Source: an uncultured Methanosarcinales archaeon (GTDB taxonomy: Archaea; Nanobdellota; Nanobdellia; Woesearchaeales; CAXGTL01). Taken from it: 64,000 bases of DNA. The position numbers and the translations under genes were made by a program. The stretch lies in assembly GCA_964535955.1 (NCBI GenBank), contig CAZHVK010000007.1, forward strand, positions 4,118-68,117. Reading direction: 5' to 3'. This document shows positions 38,273 to 61,849 of this stretch, one piece after another. Below the pieces are notes generated by a model. That model did no database searches and was not told the origin of the DNA. It saw nothing but the letters and a program-made list of their open reading frames with translations. Positions within the stretch are counted from its first letter, which is position 1; each line of letters opens with the position of its first letter.

Positions 38273-39418
38273 ATGAATAAAGATTCAGAAAAAAGAAAAA
38301 TATCAAAACCAGCAAAAATAGCTGGAACAGTGCTTGGAATCCTATTAAGTATTGCAGGAATAAAAGCAAATGCTCAACCAATGAATTATGGTAATGACTT
38401 AGACCAAATGAGAGCAGCAGCAGATGCATACTGGGGTGGAAATTCAAGTTCATCTAGAGGATATGGTTATTCAGGTTCAAGAGGAAGAACAGACCAAGAA
38501 GTAAACAGCATGGGTGTTAAATGGGAACATGGCAGTGCTAATTATATACAAACAAATGACAGAAGAGGAATGGTTGGTAGAGAAAAAACAACTTATGGAG
38601 TATCTGGAACAAGAAAAGGAAAACCATGGAGTACCTCTATTACATTCAAAGGAGATCTTAACAAATTATTAGGATTACAAATCATGGATGAATACACATT
38701 AGACCATTTAGATATGGAATTCTGGGAAAAAACATACAGAACAAATTCAAGAGGTGGTTTATTTTGGGATAGAAGATCTTCAGGCGGATGGGAACATCAT
38801 TCACCAAAAGAAAAAGGAAGATTTTATGTTGAAGATCCATTAAGAGCAAGCATTGAATTACAAGAACAAGCAGACAGGATCTATAGACTTGATGATGGTT
38901 CTTTATTAGGAGTTAAATATGCACCTTATGGAACAAAAAAAGCAAGACAAAAAGAACAAGATTTTAATAAAAAAACAGCTAATACAGATCCAAATCAAAA
39001 ATCAAGATTTAGTGATCCAAATAGAAGAGAAAGACTTAGAATAATTCCAGCTGGTGAAGAAGATCATGTTAAATATGATATTGAACACATTCTTATAGAC
39101 GAGACTGCATTAGCAAATGGTAAAGATCTTATGTATTTTGGTGAAGAAGTTGAAGCAGAGCCAGGAACATTTTATTATACTTTTAACCCATCAGCATTAA
39201 TGCAAAGAGCAAGAGCAAAGAGAAAAGAATACAATTCACAGTTTGTTGTAAGTGATATTTTAGAAGAAATAAAAAACAGAAACCCAGAAACAGACTTAGA
39301 TGAAGCAGAAACAGCAGACTTTATAATCAGATACCATGGAATGTTTGAGCCTGGTGTTGGATACAAGATTGCTCTAAACGAACAAAAAGCACAAGAATTA
39401 ATAGCAGAAGAAGAATAA
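38273..39418 (+). CDS. secreted hypothetical protein
   Basis: signal peptide (AGTVLGILLSIAGIKANA); Gly/Ser/Arg-rich region; 381 aa. Confidence 0.45.
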   Translation: MNKDSEKRKISKPAKIAGTVLGILLSIAGIKANAQPMNYGNDLDQMRAAADAYWGGNSSSSRGYGYSGSRGRTDQEVNSMGVKWEHGSANYIQTNDRRGMVGREKTTYGVSGTRKGKPWSTSITFKGDLNKLLGLQIMDEYTLDHLDMEFWEKTYRTNSRGGLFWDRRSSGGWEHHSPKEKGRFYVEDPLRASIELQEQADRIYRLDDGSLLGVKYAPYGTKKARQKEQDFNKKTANTDPNQKSRFSDPNRRERLRIIPAGEEDHVKYDIEHILIDETALANGKDLMYFGEEVEAEPGTFYYTFNPSALMQRARAKRKEYNSQFVVSDILEEIKNRNPETDLDEAETADFIIRYHGMFEPGVGYKIALNEQKAQELIAEEE

Positions 39419-39585
39419 GAGTAATTCTTTTTTTATTATTTTTTATTATTTATGATTTTTTTATCTTTAATTATTAATTTTATATTCTATGTTTTTCATA
39501 TTCCACATTTTTCCTAATTTTACTTGATTTCCACCTCTCTAAAACAGATAAGTTTAAAAACAATTTCTTATTTATTATTCTATAT

Positions 39586-39735
39586 CCCTACCTAGCTCAA
39601 TTGGTCAGAGCGCACGGCTGTTTTCCTTATACAGGAAGGCTAAAGATGTGTTCGCTATTTGACTGGGTGCATACCTTGGATGAAAAATAGTCAGCCGGTA
39701 CCGTGAGGTTCCTGGTTCGAGTCCGGGGGTGGGGA
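39586..39735 (+). tRNA. intron-containing tRNA, probably tRNA-Asn(GUU), ~76-nt intron in the anticodon loop
   Basis: acceptor CCCTACC/GGTGGGG, D-arm GCTC..GAGC, anticodon stem CACGG/CCGTG interrupted 39624-39699, T-arm CCTGG TTCGAGT CCGGG. Confidence 0.5.
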
Positions 39736-39737
39736 TT

Positions 39738-39767
39738 AGCCAGGCTAAGTCCTGGCTTTATTCTTTT
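39738..39767 (+). terminator. hairpin AGCCAGG-CTAAGT-CCTGGCT followed by T-rich tract after the tRNA
   Basis: 7-bp stem plus TTATTCTTTT. Confidence 0.4.
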
Positions 39768-39821
39768 AATAGTTAATTTTATTAACCTGTTGTTTTTTAT
39801 CCCCTCTAAAAGAGGTTTTGT

Positions 39822-40582
39822 ATGAGAATAAAAAAACTTAAACAAGGTTACAAAAAGTTAACAAAAGAAAAAGTTAGAATAATAGCTCATTTAATTGGTG
39901 ATGGATATATAGGTATAAGTAAACATGATTATAATATTAAATATGAAGTTTCTGATGAAGAATCATTAAACTCCTTTAAAAGTGATTTAGTTGAAGTATA
40001 TGGTCTTAAACCTACAATTGGAACAAATCCCTCTGGCAAAACAGGCAAACCAATTCCTTTTATTAGATTAAGGTCAAAATTAGCTTATGAGGATTTGTCA
40101 AGAACCACCGGTCAATAGACCGGTGGCATGAAGCGAAAGCTTCATAACAGCCTATAATGACCAGTGGTTCTTGATCATGCTCAGTATTCCACCAGTCAAT
40201 AGACTGGTGGTATACTGACATATTAAAATATGCAACATATTATTCTAAAGATTGGAAGATTCATAAATCATTGCTCTTAGCTTCTGCTGATATTAAAATA
40301 GAATTTCTTAAAGCATTATTTGATGATGAAGGAAGTGTTATTCCTACTGGTAAGAATGGCATTATTAGATTATATTCTATAAATTTAGAAGGACTAAAAC
40401 AAATCCAAACCATTTTAATAGACTTTAAAATAGAATCTAAAATTGTGAAGGGCTTTGGTTGCAGAAGAAATGTTTATGCTTTAGTAATTAAAAACCTAAA
40501 ATTATTTAGAGAGAGGATAGGTTTCAATTTAAAAAGAAAACAAAAAAAATTGAATGATCTAATTATAAATCAATTAAAATGA
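39822..40582 (+). pseudogene. LAGLIDADG homing endonuclease split in two by a ~110-bp palindromic insert
   Basis: first half carries LIGDGYIG (LAGLIDADG motif 1), second half FLKALFDDEGSV (motif 2); halves in frames 0 and 2, insert length congruent 2 mod 3; stop codon lies inside the insert. Confidence 0.65.
40098..40213. repeat. hairpin-rich MITE-like insert: CCACCGGTC-AATA-GACCGGTGG, GNRA hairpin ATGAAGC-GAAA-GCTTCAT, inverted copy of left arm, CCACCAGTC-AATA-GACTGGTGG
   Basis: three perfect hairpins, long inverted repeat TCAAGAACCACCGGTC / GACCAGTGGTTCTTGA. Confidence 0.7.
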
Positions 40583-55685: not shown

Positions 55686-55789
55686 CTATTACCTTTTTTA
55701 TTATTAATAATAAATCTGTCCTCTTTTTTTATCAGCTTAATATGTTAGTATACCATCAGCCTATTGACTGTTGGTTCTTTACATTATAA

Positions 55790-56746
55790 TTATGTATCAG
55801 TTGTTTCTGATTTAGCAGTTTTATCTTCTTGCGCTTTGTTTTCTTTTGTTTTTGCTTCTTCTTTTTCTTCTGGTTTTTTACTTTGTTCTGTTTCTTTATT
55901 TACTTTTTCTTCTTCTTTTTTACTTTGTTCTGTTTCTTTATTTACTTTTTCTTCTGGTTTTTTACTTTGTTCTGTTTCTTTATTTACTTTTTCTTCTTCT
56001 TTTTTACTTTGTTCTGTTTCTTTATTTACTTTTTCTTCTTCTTTTTTACTTTCTTCTTTCACTTCTGTTTTCACTTCTTTCTTCTCTTGTTCTTCAACAA
56101 ACACAATTTTACTAATATCATCAATTAATCCCGTTAATTTGTCACTTATTTTATCTTTTGAGTCTTTTATTATATTAAAGTTTATTTTCTTGATAATAAC
56201 TTTTGCAGTACTATCTTTAATTTCAATTTTTTCAGGCTTAAAACCAAACTCTAACAAGATAAATGATTCAATTTTTTTAACATTGTCTGTGATTAATTTA
56301 TTAATCTTAACTATGTAAACAAGATCTTTACTAGACAAAGGATGGTTAAAATCAACAATAACCCTTCCACCTGTAACAGTTCTGATTACTCCAACAACTC
56401 CATCAATATTAACTTGTAAACCAGGCATTGGCTGAATATTTTGTTTTTTAAACACTCTAGTAGGAACTATTTTCAGAAGTTTTGCACTTTTCTTGCCAAA
56501 AGCTTGTTCAGCTTTTATATCAAATGTATATTCCTTATCAACTTCTTTACCTATTATTTGCTGATCTAAACCCTTGATCAACTGTCCTTGACCAACACAA
56601 ATAACAAGTGGCTGATATTTCATTTGTTCATTATAAATATTATTATCTTTTGCAGTTTTTTCATTTGTTGTATCAAATATTAGGTCCTCTTCTTTTGTTT
56701 TACCAGTATAATCAATTTCAATGAAATCCTTATCTTTTATTGTCAT
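55790..56746 (-). CDS. FKBP-type peptidyl-prolyl isomerase with C-terminal EEKVNKETEQSKK(P/E) tandem repeats
   Basis: N-terminal FKBP fold segments (DFIEIDYTG...; VIVDFNHPL), IF-like insert, 14-aa repeats x4.5. Confidence 0.65.
   Translation of the reverse strand: MTIKDKDFIEIDYTGKTKEEDLIFDTTNEKTAKDNNIYNEQMKYQPLVICVGQGQLIKGLDQQIIGKEVDKEYTFDIKAEQAFGKKSAKLLKIVPTRVFKKQNIQPMPGLQVNIDGVVGVIRTVTGGRVIVDFNHPLSSKDLVYIVKINKLITDNVKKIESFILLEFGFKPEKIEIKDSTAKVIIKKINFNIIKDSKDKISDKLTGLIDDISKIVFVEEQEKKEVKTEVKEESKKEEEKVNKETEQSKKEEEKVNKETEQSKKPEEKVNKETEQSKKEEEKVNKETEQSKKPEEKEEAKTKENKAQEDKTAKSETTDT
55871..56060. repeat. 42-bp tandem repeat x4.5 within the FKBP gene
   Basis: units TGG/TTC-TTTTTTACTTTGTTCTGTTTCTTTATTTACTTTTTCTTC on plus strand. 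Confidence 0.85.
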
Positions 56747-60596: not shown

Positions 60597-60629
60597 TTAG
60601 ATAAATATAAATGCCACAAAATCATTGCA

Positions 60630-60719
60630 TGGGTCTGGCCGGACTCGAACCGGCGATTAACGCCTATCTTTTCCTAATGGAATGTAAGGGCGCTGTCATA
60701 GCCACTAGACCACAAACCC
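60630..60719 (-). tRNA. tRNA-Val(UAC) with ~17-nt anticodon-loop intron
   Basis: reverse complement: GGGTTTG TG GTC-TAGTGGCTAT-GAC A GCGCC CTTACA[intron]A GGCGT TAAT GCCGG TTCGAGT CCGGC CAGACCC A. Confidence 0.7.
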
Positions 60720-60778
60720 AATTATATATAGAAAACAAACCACATATATAAAAAGGTTACTGTAAAAAGCTTTATATA

Positions 60779-61715: not shown

Positions 61716-61849
61716 GGGCCTGTAGCTTAGTCTGGTGGAGCGCCGGTCTTATATGGCAGTGTTCCCAACAACTGGCTTAAGTTAGCCGGTGGTCGTGCGA
61801 GGATAACATTATCAGTGTTGTTCCACGAATTCAAATCGCGCCAGGCCCA
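61716..61849 (+). tRNA. tRNA-Ile(UAU) candidate with two 30-nt introns (anticodon loop 37/38 and T-arm)
   Basis: acceptor GGGCCTG/CAGGCCC, D-arm GCTT..GAGC, anticodon stem CCGGT/GCCGG, loop CTTATA|intron|A with BHB pairing CTTA/TAAG; T-stem GTGCG [30-nt insert] TTCAAAT CGCGC. Confidence 0.5.

Follow-up and report, generated by a model that had tools for sequence, protein, structure and literature searches.

Our analysis makes it very probable that a LAGLIDADG homing endonuclease gene in the window (the whole 64,000-nucleotide stretch of DNA that was analyzed, which is AT-rich with a GC content of 30%) has been disrupted by a 125-bp, transposase-less IS200/IS605 derivative of the PATE/MITE kind, inserted antisense in the gene. 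The insertion is an ordinary recent gene disruption, the element is an IS200/IS605-derived MITE and thus of a known type, and the host is a DPANN, Woesearchaeota-like archaeon. The features concerned are as follows:

39585..39736, plus strand: tRNA with a GUN anticodon (His-GTG according to ARAGORN), with a 76-nt anticodon-loop intron at 39622-39697, 85 nt upstream of the LAGLIDADG gene.
39822..40096, plus strand: N-terminal part of the LAGLIDADG gene (residues 1-91 and the first two bases of codon 92), with the motif LIGDGYIG, based on ORF translation and homolog alignment.
40097..40221, minus strand: non-autonomous IS200/IS605-family element (PATE/MITE), with copies of the same length and the same ends in loci L007 and L046.
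40097..40176, minus strand: right end (RE) of the element, in which a closing stem pairs 40097-40108 with 40164-40175; the top strand ends in TTGAC.
40116..40118, plus strand: in-frame stop codon TAG, which ends the N-terminal ORF, located in the loop of an RE hairpin, 19 nt into the element.
40177..40221, minus strand: left end (LE) of the element, consisting of the 11-nt arm ATGTCAGTATA and then the conserved hairpin (40189-40210), prolonged into a stem of about 17 bp.
40222..40226, minus strand: target TTAAT, directly 5' of the LE, corresponding to codons L92-L93-K94 of the original gene.
40222..40582, plus strand: C-terminal part of the LAGLIDADG gene, from the last base of codon 92 to the stop, with the second motif FLKALFDDEGSV.
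55742..55782, plus strand: second copy of the element in the window, 41 bp, composed of the LE arm, one degenerate hairpin and the RE tail (TTCTTTAC), with TTAAT at 55737-55741.

Translation confirmed that both LAGLIDADG motifs named in the first-pass annotation, which was made from the letters alone, are present in ORFs in different frames: LIGDGYIG within the ORF at 39822..40118 (frame 0, 98 aa), and FLKALFDDEGSV within the ORF at 40271..40582 (frame 2), whose frame is open, with no stop, from 40175. Once joined, the two halves match Pfam LAGLIDADG_3 (PF14528; 1.7e-11), and the joined protein has 133 homologs (best E = 4e-84), mostly of 200-215 aa and from Woesearchaeota and Nanoarchaeota, with no sequence relatives in the PDB at E <= 0.01. 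Over its whole length, the joined protein can be aligned with more than 100 full-length homologs of about 206 aa (50-69% identity), and this alignment is colinear over the break, where RLRSKLAYEDL continues directly into LKYATYYSKDW; a BLAST search with the rejoined protein had been suggested as a check, and its outcome is that the halves belong to one gene. Since the alignment places the junction, 125 nt must come out. The insert, described at first as 110 bp, is therefore longer according to both the homolog alignment and the comparison of copies, and the original frame arithmetic was still right because 125 and 110 are both congruent to 2 mod 3. It should be noted that the protein alignment allows borders from 40095-40098 to 40219-40222 and does not by itself separate 40097-40221 from 40098-40222; the borders 40097..40221 were set by comparison with other copies of the element. 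The pre-insertion gene then reads GAG GAT TTA TTA AAA TAT (E D L L K Y), in agreement with the homolog consensus, and the empty-site junction is GAGGATTT joined to ATTAAAATATG.

Because the insertion shifts the frame and brings in the TAG, which lies, as initially proposed, inside the first hairpin (40105-40126), the gene is disrupted at the DNA level. Translation would end at this codon, and we infer that endonuclease function is likely lost. Of the columns that are invariant in 23 homologs, the gene has kept all 37, and of those with a conservation of 90% or more it has kept 63 of 64. Judging from the undecayed state of the rest of the gene, the insertion is its sole lesion and the event is recent, in support of the earlier suggestion of a recently inactivated free-standing homing endonuclease, here split by a mobile element. 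Twelve contigs, which come from several samples, carry exactly the same 98-aa N-terminal ORF, and four fetched contig copies are identical to the window over the tRNA, the gene and the insert. Given that the interrupted allele recurs in independent assemblies, it is not an assembly artifact; the fetched contigs, being identical across the region, consequently cannot reveal whether selection acts on the two halves. Upstream of the tRNA, a 381-aa ORF (38273-39418) accounts for every one of the 58 differences seen when five 3.3-kb contigs of different samples, otherwise identical, are compared, and this ORF may encode a fast-evolving surface or secreted protein.

The insert proved as hairpin-dense as had been described. 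As RNA, its fold has a z-score of -9.5, and 0 of 200 shuffles fold as well, while single-stranded DNA of the window minus strand, which is the top strand of the element, gives a z-score of -12.35. A 22-nt hairpin (CCACCRGTCTATTGACYGGTGG) is found twice in the insert, near both ends, with 0 expected in shuffles; the two copies, CCACCGGTCAATAGACCGGTGG and CCACCAGTCAATAGACTGGTGG, are direct repeats, distinguished by a single compensatory pair. The top strand has the form 5'-ATGTCAGTATA-hairpin-...-hairpin-TTCTTGAC-3' and reads, with its flanks, ttaat, ATGTCAGTATA, the hairpin at 40210..40189, AATACTGAGCATG ATCAAGAACCAC and onward to CATG, the hairpin at 40126..40105, TTCTTGAC and aaatcc. The LE was assigned on the basis of sequence, pattern search, ssDNA fold and comparison with the LE of the insertion sequence (IS) copies in loci L003 and L047. 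In the RE, two hairpins lie within the closing stem, the conserved one (40105-40126) and one with a GAAA loop (40128-40145), an architecture common to tnpA-bearing IS copies and to MITEs of other genomes. The element has neither terminal inverted repeats (termini ATGTCAG... and ...CTTGAC) nor an ORF. No target-site duplication is observed, and the right flanks differ between copies.

Two copies of the element were seen within the 64-kb window. The second, detected by a blastn search of the insert against the window, is intergenic, located between the genes for an FKBP-type PPIase and ftsZ, 8 nt past the PPIase stop; its terminal TTGAC is mutated to TTTAC, and its flanks match the sequence at the two ends of the insert. 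Outside the window, loci L007 (Woesearchaeota SI047_bin3) and L046 (SI074_bin25) carry 125-bp copies that are 87-88% identical and occupy unrelated sites, and in both the similarity begins exactly after TTAAT and ends exactly after TTGAC. Each of the five subfamily copies has TTAAT in front of its LE, namely the gene copy, the second window copy and those in L007, L046 and L067. A separate observation concerns the PPIase, the C-terminal part of which (55829-56128) is a tandem array of EEKVNKETEQSKK-like repeats.

A scan of one genome per GTDB species detected the hairpin pattern in at least 116 loci, 112 of them archaeal among the matches listed. Those matches comprise 50 loci in Woesearchaeota, 19 in Methanosarcinales, 18 in unclassified archaea, 12 in Thermoplasmata, 5 in Nanoarchaeota, 4 in Aenigmatarchaeota, 3 in Altiarchaeota, 1 in Pacearchaeota and 4 in Bacteria, the bacterial ones probably being chance or unrelated occurrences. 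A single Woesearchaeota genome (JACPNA01) accounts for 24 loci among the matches listed, with near-identical elements of about 149 bp whose flanks are all different. The architecture is constant across subfamilies and, in the plus-strand sense of the window, is composed of GTCAA, a closing stem, the conserved hairpin, CATG, a variable hairpin and the return strand of the closing stem, followed by a second stem with another copy or variant of the hairpin and an A/T-rich tail; the sequence of the closing stem differs between subfamilies and its pairing is kept. We found no description of the hairpin sequence in the searchable literature.

The other copies of the family are overwhelmingly intergenic, and a scan for ORFs that rejoin after deletion of the element gave no convincing case of a second genic insertion. 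Locus L006 was considered as a gene-interrupting copy and rejected, as it contains two adjacent genes, with a HIT-family protein beginning 11 codons past the junction, and the remaining loci flagged as rejoining ORFs failed with near-border deletions.

The link to an IS200/IS605 transposase comes from the clustering of all ORFs that have 150 aa or more and lie no farther than 2.5 kb from a hairpin; this gave one small recurrent family (L003, L047 and L101), from three other archaeal genomes. Its members match Pfam Y1_Tnp (PF01797) with values of 8e-27, 4e-22 and 3e-8, respectively; with NCBIfam transpos_IS200 (NF033573, cut-off 55 bits), L003 scores 98 bits and L101 scores 33 bits, which is below the cut-off. 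In L003 and L047, the conserved hairpin is present on both sides of tnpA and on the same strand, the order, with tnpA on the top strand, being TTTAA, a short arm, the hairpin CCACCRGTCTATTGACYGGTGG, tnpA and an RE that ends in TTGAC. This RE consists of a closing stem with a variable hairpin, CATG and the hairpin, and is built like the RE of the window element. L101 follows the same plan with a variant hairpin, and in JACPNA01 the RE of the MITE aligns with that of a tnpA-bearing IS in the same genome. No tnpA was found by tblastn within the 64-kb window, and the element is therefore non-autonomous here. Additionally, L101 (JACPNA01) was seen to contain two tandem, divergent IS200-type tnpA genes (2-220 and 355-786), the second of which runs off the locus.

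In IS608 and ISDra2, TnpA binds hairpins on single-stranded DNA and cuts 3' of the left-flank target (TTAC for IS608, TTGAT for ISDra2) and of the right terminus; the top strand is circularized and reinserted 3' of another target, and excision reseals the donor precisely. By analogy with these systems, we infer that a Y1 HUH transposase (TnpA), supplied in trans, would recognize both subterminal hairpins on the single-stranded top strand and would cut on the 3' side of both the flanking TTAAT and the terminal TTGAC. The element would move as a single-stranded circle ("peel and paste") and would be pasted 3' of another TTAAT without target duplication; the target in this case was the antisense-strand TTAAT of codons L92-L93-K94 (originally GAT TTA TTA AAA). 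Precise TnpA-mediated excision would exactly restore the gene and, as this type of excision is typical of the IS200/IS605 family, the disruption is potentially reversible. Nothing suggests removal at the RNA level.

Removal from RNA is what the other possibility raised by the first-pass annotation entails, namely that the insert is a small archaeal bulge-helix-bulge (BHB) intron of the mRNA, taken out by the tRNA splicing endonuclease and a ligase so that a full-length endonuclease is made. It is true that taking out 125 nt restores the frame exactly and yields a protein colinear with its homologs, that tRNA introns, some of them non-canonical, abound in the genome, that the gene has no other decay, and that the interrupted allele persists in several samples. 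However, the search for BHB geometry (a 4-bp central helix flanked by 3-nt bulges, plus outer or inner helices) gave no frame-restoring motif at 40095-98/40219-23, in a strict scan that recovered, as a control, the canonical 30-nt intron of the tRNA at 61716-61849 (score 14) and that can miss relaxed motifs, since it failed to recover the intron of the neighboring tRNA at 39585. The candidates found at the endonuclease gene would remove 79, 90, 135 or 141 nt, none of which restores the ORF at the junction, and the best of them removes 79 nt and then runs into a stop. Moreover, an insert at residues 92/93 is present in none of about 60 close homolog loci, drawn from metagenomes and assemblies and checked by tblastn, three of which have simple frameshifts or truncations at other positions. 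The insert also belongs to a family of DNA transposons, being an IS200/IS605 derivative that is mostly intergenic, and the L006 element is antisense to both adjoining genes, and is therefore a poor fit to a dependence on sense-strand RNA removal. Taken together, these results leave the intron reading very improbable. A paper on circular IS200/IS605 omega-RNAs in archaea describes no BHB motif at those RNAs.

We give even less credence to an element that removes itself from RNA, by ribozyme or IStron-like self-splicing, and whose insertion into genes would be harmless. Its relation to IS200/IS605, its very high degree of structure and the RE closing stem that varies between subfamilies while remaining paired speak for this, but the region 39500-40300 has no match to a ribozyme or intron family in Rfam, either at the gathering threshold or at E <= 10, and 125 nt is far below the size of a group I intron. 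The antisense position of the L006 element counts against this idea as well, as does the lack, apart from the window copy, of a convincing genic insertion in our scan, which is expected if such insertions are harmful. A C/D-box sRNA, a hammerhead and other ribozymes were also considered for the insert and rejected, with no box or core consensus by eye and no support from Rfam. Single-motif LAGLIDADG enzymes act as dimers, and it could be argued that two half-proteins with one motif each are both made and reassemble into a functional two-piece endonuclease. Both halves are intact and the allele occurs in several samples, but the C-terminal half lacks an ATG and could start at the earliest with a TTG at 40271, inside the domain, and the persistence of the allele is uninformative on selection because the fetched contigs are identical over the region; we consider this possibility highly unlikely. 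Disruption of the gene by a transposase-less IS200/IS605 derivative is hence the reading that we prefer.

The intron-bearing tRNA reported upstream of the gene is that at 39585..39736. It was called by ARAGORN with the intron option and missed by Rfam and by default ARAGORN, and its precise anticodon is uncertain, as the borders of the intron may be shifted. A free-standing endonuclease beside a tRNA had been regarded as unusual; the association is a real pattern, and it is conserved across many genomes, members of this LAGLIDADG family being found almost always beside a tRNA gene. The loci covered were the window (39585-40582), L117, L119 and L121-L176. A co-oriented tRNA with a 46-84-nt anticodon-loop intron was detected upstream by ARAGORN in 29 of the 49 testable close-homolog loci, with about 30-260 nt, and usually 70-100 nt, between the end of the tRNA and the endonuclease gene. 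On visual inspection, a tRNA is likewise present in most of the other loci, in some cases with extra introns and in some on the opposite strand. The ARAGORN calls of the linked tRNAs are mostly His, Asn, Asp or Tyr, all with GUN anticodons, and the differing identities may reflect only sliding intron borders. The neighborhoods of the linked loci differ, with RpoH/RpoB in one and a cation ATPase and DMRL synthase in another.

In four loci (L157, L164, L165 and L166), the ORF begins about 15 nt after the tRNA 5' exon. In three of these, which hold more divergent homologs, ARAGORN run for long introns placed the LAGLIDADG ORF inside a 695-707-nt anticodon-loop intron (L157 2429-3198, L165 557-1323 and L166 2445-3225). 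Since Rfam detected no group I intron at these long-intron loci, they look like protein-spliced tRNA introns carrying an endonuclease gene. In more distant relatives (27-29% identity), the gene follows an intron-less tRNA-Met at a distance of about 35 nt. Our search, with incomplete coverage of the searchable literature, found no description of the tRNA-LAGLIDADG linkage, and on endonucleases in archaeal tRNA introns it returned only work on archaeal rRNA group I introns and bacterial tRNA group I introns.

One tentative explanation, which we think somewhat doubtful, is that the tRNA-linked LAGLIDADG lineage of DPANN archaea forms a two-part homing unit, in which the endonuclease would cut intron-less tRNA alleles and the short intron would protect the host copy; some genomes have the ORF within an anticodon-loop intron of roughly 700 nt in a GUN-anticodon tRNA, and others, the window among them, have it about 85 nt downstream of such a tRNA, which retains an ORF-less intron of 50-84 nt. 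In phages, collaborative homing of this sort pairs a free-standing endonuclease with a group I intron that has no ORF. If the two-part model is true, the transposon hit would be a natural knock-out and would show that the cell can do without the endonuclease. The tRNA-tied lineage also bears on the movement of archaeal protein-spliced introns.

Several further observations were made at these loci and at other tRNAs of the window. A fragment resembling a tRNA T-arm or 3' acceptor directly follows the endonuclease stop in L153 (3134-3165), L158 (3134-3175) and L170 (2261-2295), in addition to the complete upstream tRNA, and may have been left behind when a tRNA gene was duplicated or served as an insertion site. 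The short tRNA introns (39622-39697; L117 3830-3978; L119 3772-3916) have common motifs (AAAGATG.., ..TGAC.., GGATGA.. and ..GTCAGCC) that, as sequences, are loosely reminiscent of C/D-box or kink-turn elements. In L160, the usual place of the tRNA, directly upstream of another member of the LAGLIDADG family, is taken by an IS200-type tnpA (246-632) on the opposite strand, which is 27-30% identical to those of L003 and L047. Elsewhere in the window, the tRNAs at 61716-61849 and 60629-60720, on whose identities ARAGORN and Rfam disagree, are further intron-bearing ones: one has a 31-nt intron in its anticodon loop and a second intron, of 37 nt, in its T-arm (Rfam score 31.5 bits), and the other has a 17-18-nt intron.

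With these results, a candidate archaeal mRNA intron is removed and a routine transposon insertion is put in its place, and for annotation purposes the two ORFs become one pseudogene and a mobile element. They also define a widespread archaeal IS200-type family, characterized by the 22-nt hairpin CCACCRGTCTATTGACYGGTGG, the TTGAC terminus and an A/T-rich target, all of which could be used to annotate MITEs in genomes of DPANN archaea, Thermoplasmata and Methanosarcinales.

The element resembles IS200, IS608, ISDra2 and the haloarchaeal PATEs in that its autonomous relatives encode a Y1 HUH TnpA. As in the IS200/IS605 family, near-identical subterminal hairpins are located at both ends on one strand, inverted repeats and target duplication are absent, and insertion takes place 3' of a fixed pentanucleotide, here TTAAT, that flanks the left end only. 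Similar to PATEs and other IS200 miniatures, the element is small, multi-copy and ORF-less. It differs from the known IS200/IS605 members in its lineage, which is DPANN and wider archaeal, the 22-nt hairpin being nearly invariant across Woesearchaeota, Nanoarchaeota, Aenigmatarchaeota, Altiarchaeota, Thermoplasmata and Methanosarcinales. Compared with the standard ends of IS608 and ISDra2, the RE is more elaborate, with a closing stem that holds two hairpins, and the autonomous copies seen have tnpA only, with no adjacent tnpB.

BHB introns are known in an archaeal protein-coding gene, the cbf5 of Crenarchaeota, and the present case is similar in that a short insert lies in an archaeal ORF and its removal restores the frame; in contrast to the cbf5 introns, it has no BHB motif at its borders, is not conserved in orthologs and is a member of a DNA transposon family. 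IStrons, which are chimeras of IS200/IS605 elements and group I introns found in Clostridia, share with it the IS200/IS605-related ends and the insertion in a gene, whereas the window element has no group I ribozyme core (no Rfam match) and measures only 125 nt. Finally, the bacterial REP/RAYT (TnpA-REP) systems likewise have short, high-copy and mostly intergenic hairpin repeats that are related to IS200/IS605 ends; unlike these, the archaeal family has kept both LE and RE, with defined termini and a target site, and its protein matches canonical IS200 TnpA (NF033573).
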